From: a virus
Taxonomy: Duplodnaviria > Heunggongvirae > Uroviricota > Caudoviricetes
Virus record (IMG/VR): IMGVR_UViG_3300045988_154803
Length of the DNA stretch: 48,828 nt
Direction: 5' to 3' (one strand)
This document shows positions 2,808 through 48,828 of this stretch, in pieces (position 1 is the stretch's first letter; each line of letters starts with the position of its first letter). The position numbers and the translations under genes are program-made. The notes below the pieces were generated by a model, which saw nothing but the letters and a program-made list of their open reading frames with translations, searched no databases and had not been told where the DNA came from.

Positions 2808-2819
2808 TGAAATCCTCGT

Positions 2820-2852
2820 TAAAAAAAAAGCCCCGCCGAAAAAGGCAGGGCT
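2820..2852 (-). terminator. Intrinsic terminator (hairpin plus U9 on minus strand) immediately upstream of holin RBS
   Basis: Minus-strand reading gccctgcc-ttttt-cggcggggc followed by nine T; only ~13 nt before holin start. Confidence 0.65.
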
Positions 2853-3193
2853 TCATAAAGCAACAAATTACGCGGTAATCGCTTAACGCAGTTTTACTAC
2901 GTTAAATGAAACACTACACCCAGTTACCATCTAAAACAAGGTTTTCTCATAAAAAAACCTTCAAATCGTGGTTAATCGATCAATAAAAAAACAATACTCA
3001 ACTTTTTGCCAAACGAACATCCCGGCCAGGACTTCCATAATATTCGCCGATATGCCACTGCTTAAGTTGAGTAATCTTCTCCAACTTAACTCCCATAGAG
3101 TCCAGTTTCTGCCATGTTTTCGGTTGTATGTGCTTCATTATCCGCTCTGAATATCTGAATACTGCTCGTAATCGCATGGCTTCTCACTACAGC

Positions 3194-3637
3194 TTATATA
3201 TGTTCACGACTGGACTTCCAGAATATCCACGCCAGATCAACATTCGGGTCCTGGTAATTCATCCCTTCGTTGGCACGAAGCAATAATGTTTCATGGTCTT
3301 TATCACCCGCATGAAACCTGACAAGTGCTTCGAACTTTTCGCGACCATCATCCGGCACTACCGGCTCTGGTTGGATAGTGACGTTGGCAAAGGCAGCACG
3401 CAAACCGGCCTTAATTTCCTCTACTTCATCAGCGCCTAGCGATGAATCTGACAATGCGTGATGGAATGCGTAAGCCATGTCGTCGTTTACTGCAACCGGC
3501 TCGACTTCCAGCGCTGCCAGAGCAATTCGTGCCAGTTCTTCCGCTTCTTCTGCTGGCAGTACAACGTTGCTACTAGGTCCGTATGTTTCGCGCCACTGCT
3601 TGATTGTCAGTAGTCGCTCTTTGGTAATAGTAATCAT
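3194..3637 (-). CDS. Hypothetical acidic protein
   Basis: 147-aa ORF in early operon; no motif recognised. Confidence 0.45.
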   Translation of the reverse strand: MITITKERLLTIKQWRETYGPSSNVVLPAEEAEELARIALAALEVEPVAVNDDMAYAFHHALSDSSLGADEVEEIKAGLRAAFANVTIQPEPVVPDDGREKFEALVRFHAGDKDHETLLLRANEGMNYQDPNVDLAWIFWKSSREHI

Positions 3638-4227
3638 GCCGCGTTTCCTTCTTTCTTATTAACAATTACACCGTCATATATTTCATTAAGGTGCCCTCTC
3701 AACTCCATGCGCCTTAATGCAGATAACATGTAATCGCATTCAACCTGCTTATTTCCAGTAAATGGCTTATCGTCAGGATTACCCCAACAGCAATTTCCCT
3801 TGGGCCACCCATGTACTTTCCGTACTCTTCCGTTAACAACGTGAAGTAATCCCCAGCCGGGAGGTAAATCCTCAACTGAAATAATTCCCGGCTCACTAAT
3901 AAAGAATCGCCAGTCGCCCATGCCAAGTGAGGGATTTTTACGGAAACGCTTTTTGCTATCTGCCAACAAGTCAGCACGAGAACACTTTGCCTCTATCAGG
4001 CATGATGCTGAATTTCTGAATCCCATAGCATCTGGCTGTTCTCCGGTACTGGTTACAGCTATAAAGCGGTCATGAAAGCAAACCTTGAACCCGTTGCGCT
4101 TAAGGAACTTGTACGCAATCTGACAGAGTTCGCGGTGTGTTAACGCCATCTCACTCTCCTTTAGTGCGCAGATAACAGTGGTTTTTCCAGCGGTTTTGCG
4201 CCGCGCTGGGCTTTTTGCAAAAACCAC
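3634..4227 (-). CDS. Hypothetical protein, possible PD-(D/E)XK nuclease-like
   Basis: 197 aa; PDAMGF ... LIEAK arrangement resembles PD-(D/E)xK core; several Cys near C-terminus. Confidence 0.35.
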   Translation of the reverse strand: MVFAKSPARRKTAGKTTVICALKESEMALTHRELCQIAYKFLKRNGFKVCFHDRFIAVTSTGEQPDAMGFRNSASCLIEAKCSRADLLADSKKRFRKNPSLGMGDWRFFISEPGIISVEDLPPGWGLLHVVNGRVRKVHGWPKGNCCWGNPDDKPFTGNKQVECDYMLSALRRMELRGHLNEIYDGVIVNKKEGNAA

Positions 4228-10830: not shown

Positions 10831-10842
10831 CCCGCTTATATG

Positions 10843-10948
10843 ATTATAGATTTATATAATTATATAAAACGCTTTTCATCAGCCAAAAAGTTGGTTATGC
10901 TTACCTCGTTCTATAAATATAGATTTATAGAATTATATAACCAAACAC
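10843..10948. promoter_or_regulatory. parA upstream region with AT palindromes (candidate centromere/operator)
   Basis: Perfect 16-bp palindrome TTATATAATTATATAA at 10843-10858 and a related repeat CTATAAATATAGATTTATAGAATTATATAA. Confidence 0.5.
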
Positions 10949-11617
10949 ATGGAGTCTCGACAAATGACTATCTCTGTAGGTATTTTCAACGGAAAAGGCG
11001 GCGTAACCAAATCAACAATTGCCCGTGCTTTAGCAGTTGCTTATGCAAAGGCTGGCTGGAATGTATGCCTGATCGATATGGATGTGCTTAACGGAACGGT
11101 AACGCGTTGGGTACAACGCAGAATGGCCAACAATATCGAACCAGCAATCGCGGCGCAGCCGTGCGGCACACCATCACAAGTCCAGAAAATCATCGAATCA
11201 GAAGTATACGACCTGGTTATCGTTGATGGCGGTGCCTACGCATCTGAATCAGTACCGAAGCTCTCTGAATTTCTGGATATGGTTATTTTGCCAACCAGAT
11301 TCTCTACCGATGACCTGGAAACCACCGTTAACACAGCTCACGGCATCGTTAAAAAGGGTGTACCAATCAAGAAAATTTGCATGGTGTTTTCCGGCGCGGC
11401 TGAAAACGAAGCTGACTATATTGAAGCCCAAGAGTACCTGGCTAATACGCCATACTTTGTTGTCGATAAGTACATTCCCCACAAGCCAGCTCTGAGCAAA
11501 GCTCAGGATAAGGGCTTAAGCCTCATTGAGTGCTCATACGTTGCGCCACGCAAAAAGGCAGACGACGTTATTCAGGGGATTATCAACCAGCTTGAGGCTC
11601 TGACTACTGCCGCGTAA
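10949..11617 (+). CDS. parA: ParA-family partition ATPase (small, type Ib-like); likely start at 10964
   Basis: Deviant Walker A GKGGVTKST; ~217 aa without N-terminal HTH. Confidence 0.85.
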   Translation: MESRQMTISVGIFNGKGGVTKSTIARALAVAYAKAGWNVCLIDMDVLNGTVTRWVQRRMANNIEPAIAAQPCGTPSQVQKIIESEVYDLVIVDGGAYASESVPKLSEFLDMVILPTRFSTDDLETTVNTAHGIVKKGVPIKKICMVFSGAAENEADYIEAQEYLANTPYFVVDKYIPHKPALSKAQDKGLSLIECSYVAPRKKADDVIQGIINQLEALTTAA

Positions 11618-12129: not shown

Positions 12130-12153
12130 ATAAAAAAGCCCCCGAAGGGGCCT
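12130..12153. terminator. Hairpin terminator (U-run on minus strand, A-run on plus)
   Basis: gcccccgaaggggc stem-loop flanked by A6 on plus strand. Confidence 0.5.
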
Positions 12154-12725
12154 AATCGCTACTTGCTGCTAATGTTTATCGTCACATTCAGAGCGTTATC
12201 AGTAATCTTCCAACCCTCCCCATGTGGCGTAAACAAAGCTCCAGTAACAACGATAAAAATACACATACAGTATTTTTTCATTGTATGGCCCTTACAGGCC
12301 GTTTCACGGCATCCCCACCGACGAAAACAACGCGAGAGCAAGCACGGCTGCTTGTGCTTGCATGTACGGCAACGGAGAATCCTCCCCTAAAGTCGGTGCC
12401 CGGGTGCGAATCGGCGGGAAGGTCCACAGGTATTTTACGATTATTTTAAGATTAGTAATAGGAAAGAAATTAAACGAAAAAACTCGTTTATTTTCACAAA
12501 ATCAGTAACCTACCCACAATCTGTGAGTTTGCAGGCACAACAAGAACCACAATTTTTTGAAGCATAATAGTGGACTATTATTACCTTTTGGGTAAAATTA
12601 ACTTGCTGCTTGTGCTTGCGTGGTTGTTTATACAACAACGTAATGCTGAAAGGACCGCGAATCCGATCAGCACGAAAGAACCGTCCTCAATAGGGCGGTT
12701 TTTTTGTTTCTGCCTACCAATAAAC

Positions 12726-12773: not shown

Positions 12774-12873
12774 TGCGCCATTGGTGGACACTTTCCGAGC
12801 CGTAGCAAAATCTACGGCCGGGATTGGAACCCCGATAATCATCATGGCGCATACCGCGTTAGCGGTTTTTTTA
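12774..12873 (+). ncRNA. Candidate small RNA (~100 nt) ending at intrinsic terminator
   Basis: Candidate promoter TTGTCT-N17-TATTGA; internal hairpin ccgtagcaaaatctacgg; terminator ccgc-gtta-gcgg + T7 at 12854-12872. Confidence 0.3.
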
Positions 12874-13037
12874 TGCGTAAAGCACTGCTACACCCAAATT
12901 ATGGTGGGGCGTGCGGGGGAGTCGTAAGACTCGCCGGATTCCATGGTGACCGGTAGTTCCAACCCTGTACGTCTCACCACCCAATGATTGGAACCAGACG
13001 GTGGTGAGTATCCTTAACCTTTAAGGGAACTATCACC

Positions 13038-13229
13038 ATGACAAACTTACCCCATGACTATTACGTCAACCTCGTAAAGATCCTTCTCAAGAAAGCCTCA
13101 TACGCCGATAAACTCCGCCTGGCTGAAATCATCGAGCGCGAAGCTATGCGCATCGCCAGCAACGATAACGCTGTTTCTGACGCAAAAATCTCCCTCGTAA
13201 CCAAAGTAGTTATGGGAGGTACAAAATGA
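13038..13229 (+). CDS. Small protein upstream of antirepressor
   Basis: 63-aa ORF with stop/start overlap (ATGA) to antirepressor. Confidence 0.4.
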   Translation: MTNLPHDYYVNLVKILLKKASYADKLRLAEIIEREAMRIASNDNAVSDAKISLVTKVVMGGTK

Positions 13230-14368
13230 AAACGCTTCCGACCGTTAACACCCTACAGCCTATCCTGCATAACCAGATCCCCGTTATCACTAGTGAACTT
13301 CTGGCGCAGTTATACGGAACAAAAATCAAAAACATTTCTGATAACTTTCTGAACAACACGACGCGATTCATAGCCGGAAAGCATTACTTTAAAATTGAAA
13401 AAAACGAATTACGCGAGTTCAAGAACAGACCTGAAACAATCGGGTTAGTTGGTAAAAATGCCCGCTCCCTAATTCTCTGGACCGAACACGGAGCAGCCCG
13501 TCACGCCAAAATGCTCGAAACCGATCAGGCTTGGGATGTGTTCGAAAAACTGGAAGACTGCTATTTCAACCAGAACGCACAAACGGCCGCGACCGTAACC
13601 GTCTCACCAAACAATGCTCGTGAGGTTGTCGATACGCTCAACGCCAAACCGATGTTTTACATTAAAGTGTGCAACAACGAGCCACTCACAACCTCAGCCG
13701 ATGTTGCCCAGGCATTCAGCACCACAAACAATTCCATCGTTATGGCCATCGATGCGTTACGCATTCCTCGCACAGCTGCGGCGCGTCATTTCTTTAAAGA
13801 GCAACGACCGTTGGAAGGAAGCGACCGCGAAATAACAATCTATCGCATGACAAAAGACGGATTTACCTTGCTCATGGAAAGTATCGACGGTCCAGGCGTG
13901 AAGGATATCAAGCTGGCCTACATTGAAGCCTTTAACGCTATCAGCAGCGTGTTAAAAACACAGTACGAGCGCGATCTGGCTAAACGACTGTACCAGGAAA
14001 AAACGATTATCCGCGCGGCAACAGAGCATAATCGGCTATTAACGGAACCGAACTACAGGAAGGAACTAATCAAGGAGTTTGACAAGGCAACAGGGAAAAC
14101 CAAAGCGGCGCTAAGTCTGCCAGCAATGACTCAGGAAAATGTGATATCAGCCTTACTTCTTGATCTGCTCAGAAACGCCAGAGCACTTATCAGCTTTGAC
14201 GAAAACCTGAATCCTCAGCTCAAGCTACTACCACCGACAGGCAAAGTAGTCGACCAGGCTGATCACAACAGCATACTCAGCGTACTGGATGCAAACCTGC
14301 CAGCCAGGACACTACAGGATCTGATAAAAACATGTGCTGATAAGCTGGCACAGAAAAGCAGACCATAA
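13226..14368 (+). CDS. ant: Antirepressor-like protein (ORF6N/KilA-N-type N-terminal domain + Rha-like domain)
   Basis: N-terminal IPVITSELLAQLYGTKIKNISDNFLNNTTRFIAGKHYF; central PLTTSADVAQAFSTTNNSIVMAIDAL. Confidence 0.7.
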   Translation: MKTLPTVNTLQPILHNQIPVITSELLAQLYGTKIKNISDNFLNNTTRFIAGKHYFKIEKNELREFKNRPETIGLVGKNARSLILWTEHGAARHAKMLETDQAWDVFEKLEDCYFNQNAQTAATVTVSPNNAREVVDTLNAKPMFYIKVCNNEPLTTSADVAQAFSTTNNSIVMAIDALRIPRTAAARHFFKEQRPLEGSDREITIYRMTKDGFTLLMESIDGPGVKDIKLAYIEAFNAISSVLKTQYERDLAKRLYQEKTIIRAATEHNRLLTEPNYRKELIKEFDKATGKTKAALSLPAMTQENVISALLLDLLRNARALISFDENLNPQLKLLPPTGKVVDQADHNSILSVLDANLPARTLQDLIKTCADKLAQKSRP

Positions 14369-16460: not shown

Positions 16461-16580
16461 CGGGTTATCTCCGGTTTAACCAGGGCGGGTATCGCTCGGT
16501 TTCGGGTATAACCTTAGGAATTTTTTTCCCACCTGTAAAGCACTTTTTATATAAATATATAATTATATAATTCTATGAGC
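16461..16580 (-). promoter_or_regulatory. Conserved promoter/5' leader cassette, copy B
   Basis: Near-identical to copies A and C; palindrome TATATAATTATATA at 16556-16569. Confidence 0.6.
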
Positions 16581-16582
16581 AC

Positions 16583-16607
16583 AAAAAAGCCCCTTTGCAA
16601 CAGGGGC
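16583..16607 (-). terminator. Intrinsic terminator after higA-like gene
   Basis: Minus strand gcccc-tgttgcaaa-ggggc followed by T6. Confidence 0.55.
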
Positions 16608-40230: not shown

Positions 40231-42087
40231 CTATATGGTTACGCCTTTACTTATAACTCTACGGCGTCTTCTACGTATACCTGACGAGTTCTGCACATAC
40301 ACATTACCTCGCATTTCCTGTTCGGCAAGCCAGTTAAAATTAGGGTTCAGAATTTCCATCGCGGCAGTTGCATAGTTACGGCAATCAAGAGGCTCGTTAC
40401 GCTCGTAGACTTTCACCCACTTTTCTTTTGTCTGCCCATTTTTATATTCAAATATTTTCTTCTCTGATAATAATCCTTTAAAGTATTCGGTATCATATCC
40501 TCTGTCAGAATCTAATGGGAAATGCATATAACCAGGACCAGGATCATGTAGTTTAATTCTTGCCATGATGGTCCCTTTACCATCATCAACCCCCAAATTA
40601 AACAACATAGCACCCACACGGTTATTATTACTTGGCTTTCCTATAAATGGTAAACCTACCCCACCACGCCCCCTGATAGAGTATATTCGCCTTGATTCTC
40701 TCGGCTTAGTAAAGCGATATACCTCTGTCGTAAAATGCCCACCAGAGTCAATACAAACGGAAGAAATCTGTAATTTTCGACCGTCACGGAATGACCAGCT
40801 ACGGAGTAAGTATTCATCAAGTTGTTTCCAGACAACATCTTGTGCGGGATCACCTGGGAATATTTTATATTCTATCCCCCATGACTCCTTACCTTTTCCC
40901 CAACCGACCAATTCACAAACTAAATACGTGTCCTGTACGTCAACACCAGCACTTAACAATAAAACATCATCTGGTAAAAACTCTTCAAACCTTATTCTGC
41001 GTTGCAACAAGTATTCAGGATCGATATCGTCTTTAGCATCCTCTTTCCATGGCTCACCCAGCTTAAGGTTAATAAACTCCATTAATCCATTTTTATCGCG
41101 GTTTCTGGTTGCTTCCGTAAATTCTTCAACCAGCTCTGACAATGCAACCCACGGGGAGTAAAGACTGTTAATATGAAAACCAACAATACCTTTAACTCCA
41201 GTATGTTCAGCTATCCATACCCCCTTCGCCAACCAATCAACGTCTGGTTTACCAGATCCGCGCATAATCCCGCCGCACTCACAGCACTCATATCTGGCCG
41301 TTTCCGGTAACGCCTCACCTGAATCGCTCTTATCCCATCTGACTTGCGACCATTTCATCACCTGCATGGTGCCACAACATGGGCAAGGAACATGGTAGTA
41401 ACGCTGATCGGAGAGCTTAAACCACTTGTGGATTTTGCTCGTTTCCTCCAAAACAGGAGTAGAAACAAAAACTTTCTTACGATTATGAAAGTTGGTAGTA
41501 CGCTGAATACCTAGTTTTAGTGGGTCGCCCTCCTGCGTCACACCGTAACGATCAATCTCATCAGCTAACAGTATTCGAATTGGCCTGGATGCAAGACCTG
41601 CTGGGGAATTAGCACCAACAAGTGCTATATATCCACCAGCGTAATGCTTCATACGTATAGTCGTGCTGGACTTTTTGGCTGCACCGCGCCCCTCTTTCCC
41701 TTCATGCAGCTTGTGTTTCAAACCAGGGGAATATTTGAACGTCGGATCAATACGCTCTTTTGAAAAAGCCTCAGCCGCCTCTACCGTTGGATAAATCATC
41801 AACTGAGGAGATGGCTCCTGATCTGCAAAGTAACCCATAACATTTAGCTGTAATTCGGATTTACCAATTTGCGAGCTACATTGCATCACTACTGTTTCTG
41901 TATCAGCGTCACCAATAACATCCATTGGTTCACGCAAATATGGCACTCGGCTTGTACGCCACGGCCCTGGCTCTGGAGACGTTCCCGGCGCTACATGACG
42001 ATACTTATCAGCCCATTCGGAAACAGTTAGCCGTGATTTAGGGCGAAGCGCACGGAAAAAAGCGGTGCTCCATACTGTTTCGCCCAT
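40231..42087 (-). CDS. Terminase large subunit (lambda gpA-like)
   Basis: 618 aa; N-terminal ...TVSEWADKYRHV resembles gpA ...TAVEWADANYYL; ATPase/nuclease size class. Confidence 0.9.
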   Translation of the reverse strand: MGETVWSTAFFRALRPKSRLTVSEWADKYRHVAPGTSPEPGPWRTSRVPYLREPMDVIGDADTETVVMQCSSQIGKSELQLNVMGYFADQEPSPQLMIYPTVEAAEAFSKERIDPTFKYSPGLKHKLHEGKEGRGAAKKSSTTIRMKHYAGGYIALVGANSPAGLASRPIRILLADEIDRYGVTQEGDPLKLGIQRTTNFHNRKKVFVSTPVLEETSKIHKWFKLSDQRYYHVPCPCCGTMQVMKWSQVRWDKSDSGEALPETARYECCECGGIMRGSGKPDVDWLAKGVWIAEHTGVKGIVGFHINSLYSPWVALSELVEEFTEATRNRDKNGLMEFINLKLGEPWKEDAKDDIDPEYLLQRRIRFEEFLPDDVLLLSAGVDVQDTYLVCELVGWGKGKESWGIEYKIFPGDPAQDVVWKQLDEYLLRSWSFRDGRKLQISSVCIDSGGHFTTEVYRFTKPRESRRIYSIRGRGGVGLPFIGKPSNNNRVGAMLFNLGVDDGKGTIMARIKLHDPGPGYMHFPLDSDRGYDTEYFKGLLSEKKIFEYKNGQTKEKWVKVYERNEPLDCRNYATAAMEILNPNFNWLAEQEMRGNVYVQNSSGIRRRRRRVISKGVTI

Positions 42088-42092
42088 GAGGT

Positions 42093-42653
42093 TTATTCTT
42101 CCTGCTTAATAAATCGGGATTCCTGGAGCGCCTGAAGCGCAAAATTAATCTCGTCTTCAATAATGCGTTCGATCTCCCTGGCTGTTTTGCCTTCACAACG
42201 GGGAGCTGCTCTTGGAGCAATACTAAATAAGCGGCTACGCAATTCATTAGCTGCCAGAAATGCATCATCCCTGACCGCATCTTTAGCGATGAGAGAGCCT
42301 TCCTTTTCTTCAAATTCAAGGCGTTTCAGCTTTGCCTGATAAATTTTTTCTGCGGTCTTAGCCTTGTTGAATTGCACCGCAACACCGGAAGTACCACCAG
42401 CTAATCCGGCATCATCAGCGGGTAACTCTGGTTGTTCCGAAGATATCCCATGCCCTCTTTTTCCATTTTCAGCAGATACCTCACGACCAACCTGTCGGCT
42501 CGCTTCATAAGCCGCACTGGCTTTATCAAAATCCAGCTTGCCGCTTTTCAGCACTGGAATGCGACCGGAACGACAGAGCTTCGTAACCATTGCCGGAGAA
42601 ATACCTTTCCGGCGAGCAAACTCTGACTTACTGACGATGGCCATTACTTGCAA
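42093..42653 (-). CDS. Terminase small subunit (N-terminal HTH)
   Basis: 186 aa; MAIVSKSEFARRKGISPAMVTKLCRSGRI HTH; upstream of large subunit. Confidence 0.6.
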   Translation of the reverse strand: MQVMAIVSKSEFARRKGISPAMVTKLCRSGRIPVLKSGKLDFDKASAAYEASRQVGREVSAENGKRGHGISSEQPELPADDAGLAGGTSGVAVQFNKAKTAEKIYQAKLKRLEFEEKEGSLIAKDAVRDDAFLAANELRSRLFSIAPRAAPRCEGKTAREIERIIEDEINFALQALQESRFIKQEE

Positions 42654-43234
42654 CCATTAGCAAGATACTGAACAAATCCCTCATGCGTTTCATGCGCGTC
42701 GTGGTACTGACGATAAACATCCAGCAACAATGCAATTTCCATATCCGTCGCGGGAATACGTTCTTTATCAATAGCCAGGTACTTAATTTGAACAACAGGG
42801 GAAGAATTATCGTCTTCTTCCTGCGGCTGTTCATCGCTTAACATTTCGTCAAGCTCTGCATCATTAAACCCAAGCAGATCAATATCAAAATCATCATCCA
42901 TTAACTCTTTGACTTCTTCGGCCAGAAGCTGCATATCCCAGCCAGCATTTAAGGCCAGCTTGTTATCTGCAATCCTGTAAGCCTTCTTCTGTTTTTCAGA
43001 AAGGTTACTCAACCGAATCGCCGGAACTTTATCCATTTCCAGAATTTCGGCTGCTGCAAGCCGACCATGCCCCGCAATCAGTTCATTCTTTTCATCGATC
43101 AGCACAGGATTAGTGAAACCGAACTCACGGATACTGTTCACCAACTGTTCAACCTGCTCATCTGAATGAGTCCGTGAATTTTTGGCGTATCTGAGCAGCT
43201 TACCGACTGGTAAATATTCGATTTTTAGAGCCAT
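42644..43234 (-). CDS. ParB-like nuclease domain protein (paralog 1)
   Basis: ParB/Srx N-domain: ...TNPVLIDEKNELIAGHGRLAAA...; paralogous to 45901-46524. Confidence 0.8.
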   Translation of the reverse strand: MALKIEYLPVGKLLRYAKNSRTHSDEQVEQLVNSIREFGFTNPVLIDEKNELIAGHGRLAAAEILEMDKVPAIRLSNLSEKQKKAYRIADNKLALNAGWDMQLLAEEVKELMDDDFDIDLLGFNDAELDEMLSDEQPQEEDDNSSPVVQIKYLAIDKERIPATDMEIALLLDVYRQYHDAHETHEGFVQYLANGCK

Positions 43235-43791
43235 TTTTTAACCGCCATAACACAACAGGTTAAAGAAAACTGTTTAACTTATTGATACTAAAAGAGAAAA
43301 ATGACGATCTTTTTACTCATAAAAAATCACACAAACCAGCATAATCATCTGATTTTATTAAGTTTTTATAAGTAAAAAGGATCTTGAGATGGTGTTTTGG
43401 TTAAAATATTGGATGTATTTGCATGATTTATAACGATTTTTATCAGAACAACATCACATTGGTTAAAGATCTGCGCGTATCTTGATGATCTAAAAGAAAA
43501 TTTTCTACTTTCTTTTTACCAGCACAAATACAGCAAAAAATCACGTTTTCCCGATATTTTTCAATGAGATGAGTAAATTTCTTTTACCGCAACTTTTAAC
43601 CTAACTTTTTTCACGTTTAGCTAGCCGAACATCGGGGTTCGAATGACCCGCATCCAACGCTTTTGGCCAGAAGGACCCAATTCTGCCGGACGATGAAACG
43701 ATGCTCGTGCTCCCCCACAGACAGCCAGCGAGCGACGCTACAGAACACAGTGAATACACTCTGCATAACAACACCATCAACCACACGATGA
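43235..43791. promoter_or_regulatory. AT-rich 557-bp non-coding region upstream of packaging operon (candidate late promoter and/or cos site)
   Basis: No credible ORF; AT-rich with homopolymer runs; lambda-type terminase implies a cos site nearby. Confidence 0.3.
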
Positions 43792-44511
43792 TTAACGAGA
43801 GAAGGTCTTAGAAAGAATGTCATCAATAGCCTTTGTGACTTCATCAGCAAACGCATCCTCACCAGCACGCAGCGCCACGCCATGCCAATCAAGACGCTGC
43901 GAATAGTTAGGTTGCTGGATAAACGTAAGGATCAACGTAGGACGCCGCCCAACGCGCTGCCAGACGCCTGGTTGAAGCGGGTTACTTGTACCAGGTCGAA
44001 CAACAAAAAACTCCGTAGGCTTGCCCTGACGGCGATTTTGATGCGCATCTCGCTGAACTCTTAGGCCAGATAAGACCTGCTGTAATTGCCCCCGCGAAAT
44101 ATTCCCGTATTTGTCCAGCTTTGCGCCGGGACCAGGAGCAAGCTGCCAGCCGTTAGGCAAATATCCACCAGCCCTTAGCGCCCCTTCTGAGCGTTTGTAC
44201 TGTCGTTGGCCACCTTCGATTTGCGGAGTCAACGTTACAGGGGCTGGCGTTCCTCCCCATTCACGAGCATACACAATGGCTGTAGGATCACTCTTCTTTG
44301 CGGCCAAAACGTAAGTAGAGTTCTGAATCCACGGCGTGGGCCTGTCAAATACCCGATTAATTTCATTCTTAATCGCAGCCTGAGAAGCCTTTGCCGTTCT
44401 GGTTGCCGCAAGCGCCATTGCGAACGGCAATTCGCGTTCTTCAAGGCGCTGGAGTTGTCGTTGAATATCCTGAGAAGAAAAATCCATCTTTATCTCAATT
44501 CTGTCAGCCAC
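43792..44511 (-). CDS. Hypothetical protein
   Basis: 239-aa ORF between methyltransferase fusion and non-coding region. Confidence 0.45.
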   Translation of the reverse strand: MADRIEIKMDFSSQDIQRQLQRLEERELPFAMALAATRTAKASQAAIKNEINRVFDRPTPWIQNSTYVLAAKKSDPTAIVYAREWGGTPAPVTLTPQIEGGQRQYKRSEGALRAGGYLPNGWQLAPGPGAKLDKYGNISRGQLQQVLSGLRVQRDAHQNRRQGKPTEFFVVRPGTSNPLQPGVWQRVGRRPTLILTFIQQPNYSQRLDWHGVALRAGEDAFADEVTKAIDDILSKTFSR

Positions 44512-44527
44512 CAGCGCCTCCTACACA

Positions 44528-45907
44528 CTACTTAATCAACGGCCGGAAAGCCGCCAGCACATCATCAGATCGTCCGATTGTTGAACCACCAGGCAACGGC
44601 AACTCAAACTCAAAACGAACAGCTTTCTCCAGACTCGCCCAACTAAGGGAATCATCGTTAATGACGTGCAAATACCAGCTCTTACAGTTGAATATTGACC
44701 GCTTAATCCTGAAACCATGTACACGACACAACTGCTTCACTTCATCATCAGAGTGAAACTTCTGGTAAAACCAGTGCCCCTTCCGGTACAACGCGGTAAA
44801 ACCGTTATGATCAATAAAATAAAGCCGGCTTTTGGAACTCGCCGCTTGTGTTTGCTTCAGGACTGTTTCCAGCTCTCCACGGCTACGACCAGAAAAGAAT
44901 ATTGACCCACCAGCTTTACACAGGCCTTTTAGAACCGTCAGAACGGACCATTCAGCCTCGACACTATCGACCGAGTTCAAAACGCTATCGCAAATCACGT
45001 AGTCGTAACGCCCTCGCGTTTTTAAGTCGTCCACCAGCGTATCAATCATCCGGTTTGTTGCGGCCCTATCCAGAGTGTTTCCAGCGCCCTTACGGCGGAA
45101 AAGCTCGAGATCATGCAGGTTATATCCCTTTGCCCTGAGCATTCGCGCGTAGTCTCCCTGCCCCGAACCAAAATCAATTCCTCTTGGCGTCTTGGCAATG
45201 ATCGGGAGGATCAACGACTCATACAGATTTGATTTCAGGCTGCCACCATTACGCAACCGCATAAGCTGCGCATACGTCTGGATGTATGTTGTTTTCTCCA
45301 GATGAGAATACTCAAATACACCATAAGTTTTATTCAGATAACTTTGGTATTTTTCCTTCTCAACATCAGGGATCACAAACACCGTTAGCGGTGTGCGCGT
45401 CATTTTCGCTGCTAATGCATACTGAGCACAGTGAATAACCTCACCAGACTGAGTAGCAACACAACCACCCCACGGACCATACTTGATAACCAGTTCCGCT
45501 ATGTTCTTTCGAACATATGCCATTTTCGCGCGCATATTGCCTGAGATCTGGCTTGCCGATACCTGAACAAAACCATGCTTATCTTCCAGACCGGACACCC
45601 TGCAACGCTCATCTCCGCTATCAAAATCCGTTCCGTTATGCAGTTGGTTAAACCGTACTTCGTCGTATACCGTCGTTTCACAGGGCAACACATACACCGC
45701 AGCACGCGTTATTCCCAACTTACGTAGCGCCTTCGTCCTTTGGTGTCCCGCCACCAGCAAATCGCCGCGCACTATCAATGGCTTCACAAGCCCCAGCTCC
45801 CTGACGCTTTCCGCCAGCCTCGCAAGATCATCCTCACCGATAAAACGCGGGTTATATTCCGCGCCGCGTAGGTGCGTTATGTCGTAATTGAGGTGAAGCA
45901 TCAGCAC
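44528..45907 (-). CDS. ParB N-domain fused to class I SAM-dependent methyltransferase
   Basis: N-terminal ...LVKPLIVRGDLLVAGHQRTKA (ParB-like); C-terminal GIDFGSGQGDYARML ... DYVICDSVL (Rossmann motif I/post-I); no DPPY/W motif. Confidence 0.65.
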   Translation of the reverse strand: MLMLHLNYDITHLRGAEYNPRFIGEDDLARLAESVRELGLVKPLIVRGDLLVAGHQRTKALRKLGITRAAVYVLPCETTVYDEVRFNQLHNGTDFDSGDERCRVSGLEDKHGFVQVSASQISGNMRAKMAYVRKNIAELVIKYGPWGGCVATQSGEVIHCAQYALAAKMTRTPLTVFVIPDVEKEKYQSYLNKTYGVFEYSHLEKTTYIQTYAQLMRLRNGGSLKSNLYESLILPIIAKTPRGIDFGSGQGDYARMLRAKGYNLHDLELFRRKGAGNTLDRAATNRMIDTLVDDLKTRGRYDYVICDSVLNSVDSVEAEWSVLTVLKGLCKAGGSIFFSGRSRGELETVLKQTQAASSKSRLYFIDHNGFTALYRKGHWFYQKFHSDDEVKQLCRVHGFRIKRSIFNCKSWYLHVINDDSLSWASLEKAVRFEFELPLPGGSTIGRSDDVLAAFRPLIK

Positions 45908-46524
45908 ACCTCCCCAGCCAGCAATGCGGATACAAATCCGATATAGCTGCCATTATCATCAACATAACGAGACACCGCGCAGTCAAAACGATCCGCTTCC
46001 TCATCCGTTGCCGGGATTTTATGACCTCCAAATGACAGGTACTGAACTTTTACGCCTGATTTGGCCTCATCCTTCTCAAATGGGATATCCATACCCTCTG
46101 TGTCATCGTAGACCGCCGCACTCAATAAGTTATCCAGTTCGCGCTGAGTAAAACCAATTGAGTCCAGAGCAAAATCATCGGCCGCAAGATCTGCAAGCTC
46201 CGCGCTTAACAGCTCTTCATCCCAACCAGCATTCAGCGGAATACGGTTGTCGGCCAGACGATATGCCTTCTTCTGATTCTCCGTTAGCCCTTCCAGAACA
46301 ATGCAGGGAACATCATCCATCCCCAACTGAGTGGCCGCAGCAATTCGACCATGACCAGCAATTACAACGTTGTTCTCGTCTATCAGGATCGGATTAGTCC
46401 ATCCGTACTCCTGTATGCTGGCAACAATCTGATCTACCTGCTCCACGGAGTGTGTGCGAGCGTTCTTTTCATAACCAATCAACACAGAAAGTGGTAAAGA
46501 AACCACATTAAGATGTTTTGTCAT
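45901..46524 (-). CDS. ParB-like nuclease domain protein (paralog 2)
   Basis: ...TNPILIDENNVVIAGHGRIAAA...; overlaps start of fusion gene (coupled). Confidence 0.8.
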   Translation of the reverse strand: MTKHLNVVSLPLSVLIGYEKNARTHSVEQVDQIVASIQEYGWTNPILIDENNVVIAGHGRIAAATQLGMDDVPCIVLEGLTENQKKAYRLADNRIPLNAGWDEELLSAELADLAADDFALDSIGFTQRELDNLLSAAVYDDTEGMDIPFEKDEAKSGVKVQYLSFGGHKIPATDEEADRFDCAVSRYVDDNGSYIGFVSALLAGEVC

Positions 46525-47260: not shown

Positions 47261-47311
47261 CCTTTAAAAAAAGACACATTGTTTTATTTATGCCTCATTT
47301 TAATCGACCAA

Positions 47312-47464
47312 TTACTGCCTAAATTTATCAATAAATAATTGCTCCCGCTTACGCCGAAAAGCTCTCTGCGCCACTAAGATGCGCCACAGGACACCAGCGA
47401 TAACCACCAGCGAGATACAAAAACACACGGCCACAACCATCAGAAAAATGCCAACACCATTCAT
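47312..47464 (-). CDS. Small hydrophobic peptide (50 aa; TM helix plus basic tail)
   Basis: Hand-translated MNGVGIFLMVVAVCFCISLVVIAGVLWRILVAQRAFRRKREQLFIDKFRQ; ATGA overlap with upstream ORF; below ORF-track cutoff. Confidence 0.3.
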   Translation of the reverse strand: MNGVGIFLMVVAVCFCISLVVIAGVLWRILVAQRAFRRKREQLFIDKFRQ

Positions 47465-47667
47465 GAAACTATCCATTCTTCAATGAATATCTCCAGTAAT
47501 GTCAAGAGATACGCCGTCCCCAGCGCGGTTCCTACCGATATAGCTAAGACAAACCTCAAAGATAACGAGGTGTCTTTCGCTTTTCTCCAGACGTAAGCGC
47601 CAGCCAGAAATACCAACAAATCTCTTATTGGAAGCGGAAACCAGAACAAATCACTCGGCAAGTCCAC
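47461..47667 (-). CDS. Small membrane protein
   Basis: 68 aa, two hydrophobic segments. Confidence 0.35.
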   Translation of the reverse strand: MDLPSDLFWFPLPIRDLLVFLAGAYVWRKAKDTSLSLRFVLAISVGTALGTAYLLTLLEIFIEEWIVS

Positions 47668-47669
47668 GG

Positions 47670-48125: not shown

Positions 48126-48150
48126 CCCATGTTCTCCTTTGTCTGGATGT

Positions 48151-48178
48151 AAAAAAGCCCCGGCAATTGCCGAGGCTC
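48151..48178 (-). terminator. Intrinsic terminator ~25 nt upstream of next gene start
   Basis: Minus strand gcctcggcaattgccggggc followed by T6. Confidence 0.55.
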
Positions 48179-48199
48179 GTTGTTCGTTATCGTTACGGT

Positions 48200-48400
48200 T
48201 TAATGCTCGCGTCGTCCGGCGACAACTTCGGATTTGTATTTCAGATCGCCCAGCAAGAATTGCAGTTTAAGCATCTTTGCCGCCGTGTAGTTCCCTGATT
48301 CCACAACCTCTTTCATGAGGTCATAAACGGCCGCAACATCATCAGCCAGGAACTCTTTACGTTGCTGCTCAGTCGCACGTTTGAAGGAAATACGCATCAC
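48200..48400 (-). CDS. Small hypothetical protein
   Basis: 66-aa ORF coupled to upstream gene. Confidence 0.35.
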   Translation of the reverse strand: MMRISFKRATEQQRKEFLADDVAAVYDLMKEVVESGNYTAAKMLKLQFLLGDLKYKSEVVAGRREH

Positions 48401-48666
48401 TCATCATCTCCTGCCGCACATACAACCTCACAAAAAACATCAGCGGAATGTTTCTTTTTGAATGAATGGCGCTCAAAACCGCACTCAATATCAGGCGCAA
48501 AAACATCCACCACATACGGTCTTTCAGAATGTTTGTTTTCCCAACGATAAACCGTAGTGACGTTGAAATGTTTTAACGCTTCACGGAACTCAACGCTGCC
48601 AGTCAGGTTTTTTGAGGTCAGGTATTGCAGGAGGTTTTTTACTACTTCACGGTCTTGTACTTTCAT
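48397..48666 (-). CDS. Hypothetical protein (first gene after leader cassette C)
   Basis: 89-aa ORF starting exactly at end of conserved leader. Confidence 0.45.
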   Translation of the reverse strand: MKVQDREVVKNLLQYLTSKNLTGSVEFREALKHFNVTTVYRWENKHSERPYVVDVFAPDIECGFERHSFKKKHSADVFCEVVCAAGDDE

Positions 48667-48785
48667 CGGGTTATCTCCGGTTTAACCAGGGCGGGTATCG
48701 CTCGGTTCCGGGTATAACCTTAGGAAATTTTTTCCCACCTGTAAAGTACTTTTTATATAAATATATAATTATATAATTCTATGAC
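48667..48785 (-). promoter_or_regulatory. Conserved promoter/5' leader cassette, copy C
   Basis: Near-identical to copies A and B; palindrome TATATAATTATATA at 48762-48775. Confidence 0.6.
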
Positions 48786-48828
48786 ACTTGCCAGAGAGCA
48801 TCATGCAATTGGATACCTCCATTGCACT
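48771..48828. repeat. Terminal overlap identical to 52-109
   Basis: Direct comparison. Confidence 0.9.

Follow-up and report, generated by a model that had tools for sequence, protein, structure and literature searches.

What does the intergenic gap at positions 43235–43791 of the viral sequence IMGVR_UViG_3300045988_154803 (Caudoviricetes; the whole 48,828-nt stretch is called the window below) do for the packaging genes beside it? An initial annotation had proposed that this gap is AT-rich and non-coding, and that it carries both the cohesive-end site (cos) and a late promoter. Our analysis favors the first of these functions: we put at roughly 85% the probability that the gap serves as the cos site for lambda-type cohesive-end packaging in a temperate myovirus of ∼48.8 kb, which is maintained in Escherichia coli as a plasmid. 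Read on the minus strand, the predicted order is cosQ, a 23-nt spacer, cosN, cosB, a ParB-like gene, terS, and terL.

Proposed cut sites and cohesive ends

Over most of its length, the window matches three isolated myoviruses, the Yersinia phages vB_YpM_39, vB_YpM_41, and vB_YpM_44 (OR545053-55), at 97–99% identity, and the gap is found at ≥95% identity in 72 of 5426 complete E. coli genomes, in 71 of the 72 on a ∼48–50-kb plasmid (among them the reference strain ATCC 25922). These phages and the ∼48-kb E. coli plasmids are essentially the window's own element with an identical cos region, save that vB_YpM_44 lacks 90 nt of it. Because the window is nearly identical to three isolated myoviruses and is carried on E. 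coli plasmids, we take it to be a plasmid-borne temperate phage that makes infectious virions. The element is common, being carried by 71 complete E. coli genomes as a ∼48-kb plasmid, and its virions plaque on Yersinia pestis EV76. In none of the inspected records of the element is cos annotated, and the gap carries either no label or the label "hypothetical."

Cut sites were located indirectly, from the ends of database records and metagenomic contigs, drawn from several independent sources. The records of vB_YpM_39 and vB_YpM_41 begin GGTCATTCGAAC|CCCGATG at window position 43648 (minus strand) and end ...GGATGCG, while that of vB_YpM_44 begins CCCGATG at window position 43636 and ends ...GCGGGTCATTCGAAC, its final 12 nt being GGTCATTCGAAC. 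The two starts are exactly 12 nt apart, as they would be for a 12-nt cohesive end whose duplicate had been trimmed from either side. The cohesive end that the initial annotation could not name can thus be given as 5′-GGTCATTCGAAC on the minus strand (plus strand GTTCGAATGACC), with cosN at 43637–43648; the proposed minus-strand nick is 43649/43648 and the proposed plus-strand nick 43637/43636, a placement that both the record ends and the Vibrio homologues support. The 12-mer occurs once in the window, and a literature search for it and its complement returned only one unrelated yeast paper. A 5′ polarity of the overhang is probable, since the 12-mer is kept at record and contig ends, as end-repair fill-in would give, and a 3′ overhang would be trimmed.

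The heptamer GGGTCCT at 43672–43678 (−) is identical to the cosQ heptamer of lambda, lies 23 nt upstream of the first nick, and occurs only twice in the window when both strands are counted. Between it and the nick runs the 23-nt spacer TCTGGCCAAAAGCGTTGGATGCG (43649–43671, −), which, as read from the sequence and its aligned relatives, ends in GCG. On the other side of cosN, the right flank CCCGATGTTCGGCTAGCTAAACG (43614–43636, −) is conserved and may be compared with CGCGGGTTTTCGCTATTTATG in lambda and CCCGCGTTTCGTCTAGCTACA in the Vibrio relatives. In an alignment of three lineages that are ∼62% identical (the window, a group of Salmonella plasmids and related IMG/VR contigs, and locus L092), cosQ is invariant, and conservation within the gap is highest across the cosQ-cosN block. 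Further invariant blocks are the right flank.CG.CTAGCT.AACG, TTAGGTTAAAAGT, GGTAAAA, and the inverted pair GATCC.TTTAC ... G.GTAAAAAGAT.

The lambda genome, whose GGGTCCT at 48473–48479 is cosQ, the termination subsite, offers a direct comparison. Its right end reads GGGTCCT + TTCCGGTGATCCGACAGGTTACG (23 nt) | GGGCGGCGACCT | CGCGGGTTTTCGCTATTTATG. Set side by side, lambda has GGGTCCT + 23 nt + GGGCGGCGACCT + CGCGGGTTTTCGCTA and the window has GGGTCCT + 23 nt + GGTCATTCGAAC + CCCGATGTTCGGCTA, so that the two share the cosQ heptamer, the 23-nt distance to the first nick, the 12-nt length of the cohesive end, the nick context CG|GG, and, beyond cosN on the right, a related TTCG-CTA element. The cosQ/cosN/cosB anatomy of lambda, with its R3-I1-R2-R1 arrangement, has been described by the Feiss laboratory, as has the high conservation of the 7-bp cosQ (PMC4669245). 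At the level of sequence, comparison establishes where cosN lies and that it is 12 nt long, which heptamer is cosQ and how it is spaced from cosN, the presence and conservation of the repeats described below, and the family of the large terminase (TerL).

By TerL identity (63–65%), the closest distinct phages are Vibrio X29, phi 2, XM1, R19R, PVP-XSN, R20L, and Rostov 7. X29, phi 2, Rostov 7, and vB_VpaM_XM1 belong to the proposed family "Weiviridae" (PMC11432961), and X29 has been published as having defined ends. X29, XM1, and Rostov 7 share the ParB-like/TerS/TerL order of the window. The X29 and XM1 records are linear and start ∼140–150 nt ahead of the ParB-like gene; the homologous 12-mer GGTGCTCGCGAC stands at both ends of the XM1 record, and the X29 record ends ...GCGGGTGCTCGCGA and starts CCCCGG. 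The Rostov 7 record is permuted and reads through the site as ...TTTGGGTCCTCCCAGC...AGAGCG GGTGCTCTCGAC CCCGCCTTTCGTCTAGCTAC, which aligns base for base with TTGGGTCCTTCTGGCC...GGATGCG GGTCATTCGAAC CCCGATGTTCGGCTAGCTAA in the window. The Vibrio cos core, TTTGGGTCCT...GCG|GGTGCTCGCGAC|CCCG..TTTCGTCTAGCTA, is homologous to that of the window, although its 12-mer GGTGCTCGCGAC differs from GGTCATTCGAAC. In the literature on these Vibrio myophages we found no description of a cos site; termini are not discussed in the XM1 paper, and the 613R2 preprint makes no mention of cos.

We then examined how widely this arrangement occurs among the viral contigs of IMG/VR. A first scan with the exact 25-mer next to cosN returned only four contigs, none of which ends at the site. 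The degenerate pattern TTTGGGTCCT-N17-23-GCGGGT was far more informative and returned at least 120 loci, some of which must be chance matches because the pattern fixes just 16 bases; GCG|GGT is part of it, so that the conservation of these bases is not independent evidence. Among the matches listed, to which the following counts apply, tblastn found a TerL match in 72 of 120 loci, in all 72 downstream of the putative nick and on the same strand, and, where the contig extended at least 4 kb downstream (56 loci), the match lay within 4 kb in 44. In the 44 loci with TerL downstream, the distance from GGGTCCT to the nick was 20–25 nt (mode 23), and CCC(G) directly past the nick was the majority state among 35 distinct viral loci. 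At least seven viral contigs end 11–14 nt past the homologous nick (e.g. GGTAATTCGGAC, GGTCCGCGAGC, and GGTAACGCGCGAC).

Several side observations come from the same set (loci L020–L139). The signature recovers diverse viral contigs with a gpA-type TerL downstream, their ends suggest an overhang length that varies by lineage from 11 to 14 nt, and each lineage carries its own short tandem repeat ∼40–60 nt past cosN (e.g. GGTTGGTTGTTGTT and CACTGTGCACTGTGC). A cosQ(GGGTCCT)-N(20-25)-GCG|GGT signature may also help to find lambda-type cos sites in metagenomic viral contigs.

Terminase, probable recognition region, and a proposed packaging model

Three genes on the minus strand form the packaging block beside the gap, as the initial annotation had described. 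TerL (40231–42087, −) is a member of the lambda gpA family with both the ATPase domain (Pfam GpA_ATPase, E 7e-76) and the nuclease domain (GpA_nuclease, E 1e-84), in keeping with the lambda-type enzyme predicted earlier; it is presumed to be the cosN nickase and packaging motor, and is 100% identical to TerL of vB_YpM_39, 41, and 44. TerS (42093–42653, −; phrog_57, E 7e-42), the presumed reader of cosB, is 43% identical to TerS of X29. The first gene past cos (42644–43234, −) encodes a protein with a ParB_N (ParB/Srx) domain (Pfam PF02195, E 4e-8; phrog_620). A ParB-like gene between cos and terS is also present in Vibrio X29 and XM1 and in at least 13 diverse IMG/VR loci (36–86% identity). 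A lambda-type cos beside a gpA-type terminase is the biologically expected result.

The AT-rich DNA between cosN and the ParB-like gene (43235–43636, −; ∼400 bp) is the probable recognition region cosB, as suggested by its repeats, an IHF-like site, and its conservation. Nine repeats of the type GGT(A/T)AAA(A/G) span 43234–43602. Five are direct (43592–43602, 43579–43589, 43511–43521, 43306–43318, and 43234–43244, the last overlapping the start region of the ParB-like gene) and four are inverted (43460–43470, 43398–43408, 43370–43383, and 43257–43267). Eight of the nine fall in conserved columns of the ∼62%-identical relatives, and the cosN-proximal repeats begin ∼35 nt from cosN, the position of R3 in lambda. 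Of the four copies of GTAAAAAG in the window, three are within cosB.

The IHF-like site AATCAGATGATTA (43342–43354, −) has one mismatch to WATCAANNNNTTR and is flanked by the inverted pair GTAAAAAG(G)ATC at 43370–43383 (+) and 43306–43318 (−), whose arms form an imperfect palindrome (z = −3.8). Within this pair, the relatives keep the positions of the IHF consensus, AATCAG-NNNN-ATTA, and vary at the N positions (AATCAGACAATTA, AATCAGTCAATTA, and AATCAGTGTATTA). A second IHF-like site, TATCAATAAGTTA (43275–43287, −), matches the consensus perfectly and is partly conserved; Salmonella-type relatives carry TTTCATTGGGTTA in its place. We consider the repeats putative binding sites for TerS and the IHF-like site a putative binding site for IHF, an arrangement that would mirror the R3-I1-R2 logic of lambda.

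The Vibrio relatives have a different repeat, GTTAACA(C/G), with five copies in ∼100 nt, all direct, at the same place as the repeats of the window, and their distance from cosN to the ParB-like gene is ∼140 nt compared to ∼400 nt here. The helix-turn-helix region of their TerS differs as well, and the two differences together are the pattern that would be expected of lineage-specific packaging specificity.

We also noted four GATC (Dam) sites in the AT-rich cosB (43306–43309, 43380–43383, 43468–43471, and 43487–43490), two of which abut the inverted GTAAAAAG(G)ATC pair. The GATC beside the inverted element is largely kept in the aligned relatives, and three of six sequences retain the one beside the direct element. 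Methylation-sensitive recognition of cosB is conceivable, and several methyltransferases are encoded by the phage.

On this basis, the packaging cycle may be pictured as follows. On concatemeric DNA, TerS would bind the GGT(A/T)AAA(A/G) repeats of cosB, probably assisted by IHF, which would bend the DNA at AATCAGATGATTA between the inverted repeat pair. This would place the gpA-type nuclease of TerL at cosN, where it would nick the minus strand at 43649/43648 and, 12 nt away, the plus strand at 43637/43636. Packaging would begin at the cosB end and probably run toward lower window coordinates, and cosQ would enable the terminating cut at the next cos. The virion DNA would then carry 12-nt cohesive ends, with 5′-GGTCATTCGAAC at the terminase-gene end, by which the genome would be re-circularized after injection. 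The packaging genes would most simply be read by transcription from upstream, as in lambda, with no promoter required in the gap.

Placing cosQ, cosN, and cosB at base level allows the genome to be oriented correctly, and predictable virion ends would aid the read-based detection of induction. It also defines the minimal DNA for transduction or cosmid-like mobilization by this phage-plasmid.

The resemblance to lambda extends beyond the cut site. Like cosB of lambda, the putative cosB of the window lies between cosN and the terminase genes and contains repeats in two orientations and an IHF-like site within an inverted pair, and TerL is of the gpA family in both. The window also has a lambda-like order on one strand, running from holins, endolysin, and spanin (1325–2807) through accessory genes to cos and the packaging genes. 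There are also differences. The window has nine AT-rich 8-mer repeats in a putative cosB of ∼400 bp, compared to three R sites in the ∼120-bp cosB of lambda (PMC4669245); its TerS belongs to phrog_57 and is not recognizably related to gpNu1; a ParB_N-domain gene stands between cosB and terS; and the virion is that of a contractile-tailed myovirus, whose prophage is a plasmid.

Weighing the alternatives

Several observations weigh against the assignment of the gap to cos, or against parts of it. The cohesive end is identical to that of lambda (GGGCGGCGACCT) at only 3 of 12 positions, and TerS has neither BLASTP similarity to lambda Nu1 (E 0.41) nor a match to the Nu1 family in Pfam, so that the proposed working of cosB is drawn by analogy and not by homology. 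On these two narrow counts, cohesive-end similarity and a Nu1-like TerS, this lambda-type cos is not lambda-like in the sense of Feiss. Seven strict matches to the repeat lie in cosB against 0.16 expected, and none of 3000 dinucleotide-preserving shuffles of the region reaches 7, a statistic that is post hoc since the motif was defined from the same sequence. The proposed cosB is also long, at ∼400 bp compared to ∼120 bp in lambda and ∼140 bp in the Vibrio relatives, and part of the AT-rich DNA may serve otherwise. The alignment shows a clean 90-nt deletion in the isolated phage vB_YpM_44 (43420–43509, −) that takes out the repeat at 43460–43470 and two GATC sites; the segment is thus dispensable for growth and plaque formation, and not all of the proposed cosB can be needed. 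The 5′ polarity of the overhang follows from library-preparation logic and homology to lambda only. Finally, the records of vB_YpM_39, 41, and 44 are flagged as circular, and we found no publication on how their start points were chosen or their termini analyzed.

The last of these points leaves room for a reading in which DNA is packaged by the headful (pac) mechanism, or is cut elsewhere, and the record ends are conventions of assembly or annotation. Against this reading, the most conserved block of the gap contains both start points, which differ by exactly 12 nt; Vibrio records from independent laboratories stop at the homologous base, the one having a 12-nt repeat at its termini and the other defined ends that have been published; and at least seven metagenomic contigs end there too. 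The cosQ heptamer and its spacing, identical to those of lambda, and the gpA family of TerL argue in the same direction, and we regard headful packaging or a cut elsewhere as extremely improbable. A different objection concerns the repeats of 43235–43615, which might form a replication origin or a parS-like partition site read by the ParB_N-domain protein and not by TerS. The region has the look of an origin or centromere: it is AT-rich, its many short repeats run in either direction, and it contains an IHF-like site as well as four GATC sites; it is about three times as long as the cosB of lambda (∼120 bp) or the cosN-to-ParB-like distance in the Vibrio phages (∼140 nt), three ParB_N-domain genes flank the gap, and neither a replication initiator nor an origin was identified elsewhere in the window, where a search for an initiator recognized only a primase-like DUF3560 protein, ParA, a CI-like repressor, and an anti-repressor. 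Against it, the gap contains no DnaA box (TTWTNCACA search) and no initiator gene adjoins it, and the ParA gene (10949–11617) lies 32 kb away with its own small downstream ORF, a putative partition partner. Lytic Vibrio relatives, which were isolated as phages, place a repeat array and a ParB-like gene beside cosN just as the window does, the repeats start ∼35 nt from cosN like R3 of lambda, and at least 13 diverse viral loci have a ParB-like gene right after cos, pointing to a phage function. The repeats are better explained as cosB, and an origin or partition site is in our view very unlikely. The recurrent ParB-like gene also invites a variant of the cos reading, in which the ParB/Srx-like protein loads on the GGT(A/T)AAA(A/G) repeats as a third component of recognition beside the long cosB. 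We think this quite unlikely; such a protein could be an extra factor for packaging specificity or against hijacking, or could make cos centromere-like for the plasmid prophage, and, if the variant is true, the recurrent gene position would make three-component recognition a widespread, undescribed accessory of lambda-type terminases.

The remaining alternative, which had been part of the initial annotation, is that the gap holds, alone or together with cos, a late promoter for the operon of the ParB-like gene, terS, terL, and the structural genes. In favor of this, no intergenic space immediately ahead of the packaging genes is larger than this very AT-rich gap, and the Vibrio relatives have, just upstream of cosQ, a hairpin resembling a terminator and then CTTTATAAT, which, if real, would make a promoter reading through cos plausible there. 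Activator-dependent late promoters often have no consensus −35 element, which also counts in favor of a promoter. In the window, however, a consensus scan found no sigma-70-like site in 43000–44000, compared to 2.0 in shuffles; no −35/−10 hexamers spaced 16–18 nt apart were found on the gene strand in this interval, a scan whose reach stops short of non-consensus, activator-dependent promoters, and manual inspection of the minus strand gave nothing above 4/6 + 4/6. The stretch from the upstream gene to cosQ is the least conserved of the gap, and no promoter-like feature in it is shared by the relatives. An intrinsic terminator scan of 43000–44000 was likewise negative. Since the upstream genes are on the same strand and no terminator precedes the gap, read-through from upstream is the simpler model, and we consider a late promoter here unlikely.

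Better candidates for a promoter, judged from the sequence, are the gap at 2808–3193 and a repeated element at ∼48700–48790. The former (386 nt) contains a strong intrinsic terminator at 2854–2827 (−), with an 11-bp stem, seven G-C pairs, and a T9 tail, that directly precedes the first holin gene (2412–2807), a layout resembling pR′-tR′ of lambda. By analogy, this gap is a speculative candidate for antitermination-controlled late transcription. No Q-type antiterminator was recognized near 2808–3193, and the ORFs at 3194–3637 and 3634–4227 match only families of unknown function. The second candidate is one of two near-identical elements of ∼85 nt (∼48700–48790 and ∼16500–16590, −), each containing an array of four TTATATAA followed by GGTGGGAAAAAATTTCCTAAGGTTATACCCG. 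The copy at 16.5 kb comes directly after a terminator hairpin, and that at 48.7 kb overlaps a promoter-like site; a palindromic array of related sequence, at 10836–10867, precedes parA. These elements and the array may be shared operators or promoter elements.

The gap in context and other features of the window

The gap extends from the start codon of the ParB_N-domain gene (42644–43234, −) to the stop codon of a 239-aa gene (43792–44511, −), and its GC content is 0.364, compared to 0.444 for the window. It is bipartite: the left two thirds (43235–43615, 381 nt) have a GC content of 0.286 and are the most AT-rich 381-nt stretch of the 48.8-kb window (runner-up 0.331), whereas the right 176 nt (43616–43791) reach 0.534, so that the earlier description of the gap as AT-rich fits only its left part. 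Likewise, the statement that no other sizeable stretch without ORFs precedes the packaging genes holds only locally, and 43235–43600 is the longest run in the window without any ORF of ≥60 aa in six frames; window-wide, other ORF-free gaps occur farther upstream on the same strand at a 100-aa cut-off (47261–47669, 48126–48828, and 2808–3193).

We found no credible gene in 43235–43791, in agreement with the initial annotation. ORFs of 61 aa (43601–43786), 91 aa (43617–43892), and 42 aa (43663–43791) were rejected, because the ∼62%-identical relatives differ there by indels whose lengths are not divisible by three (29 + 8 nt in one alignment of the GC-normal part, 14 + 16 nt in another). The stretch from the stop of the 239-aa gene to cosQ (43679–43791, −) is best described as a GC-normal, poorly conserved spacer, with low identity, non-triplet indels, and no match in the promoter or terminator scans. 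A T-loop-like GGTTCGAAT inside cosN had raised the possibility of a tRNA gene or attachment (att) site, which was rejected: ARAGORN and Rfam find no RNA in the gap, and Rfam gives no match better than E 0.9 over 43100–43900.

Upstream of the gap, the 239-aa gene is followed by a ParB_N-methyltransferase fusion (44528–45907, −) and a further ParB_N protein (45901–46524, −). Together with the first gene past cos, this makes three ParB_N (ParB/Srx) paralogues flanking the site, of which one carries a fused methyltransferase domain.

The only tRNA found in the window by ARAGORN and Rfam is a tRNA-Met (CAT) at 956–1031 (−), between the lysis cassette and a gene for an MT-A70 methyltransferase (60–647); a terminator-like hairpin at 748–718 follows it. 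Rfam also detects ryfA (12132–12427, −), isrK (12799–12872, +), and C4 antisense RNA (12897–12984, +) directly upstream of an anti-repressor (Ant/Rha-like) gene (13226–14368, +). We read the C4-ant region as a putative P1/P7-style immunity module in a phage whose head and packaging are otherwise of the lambda type.

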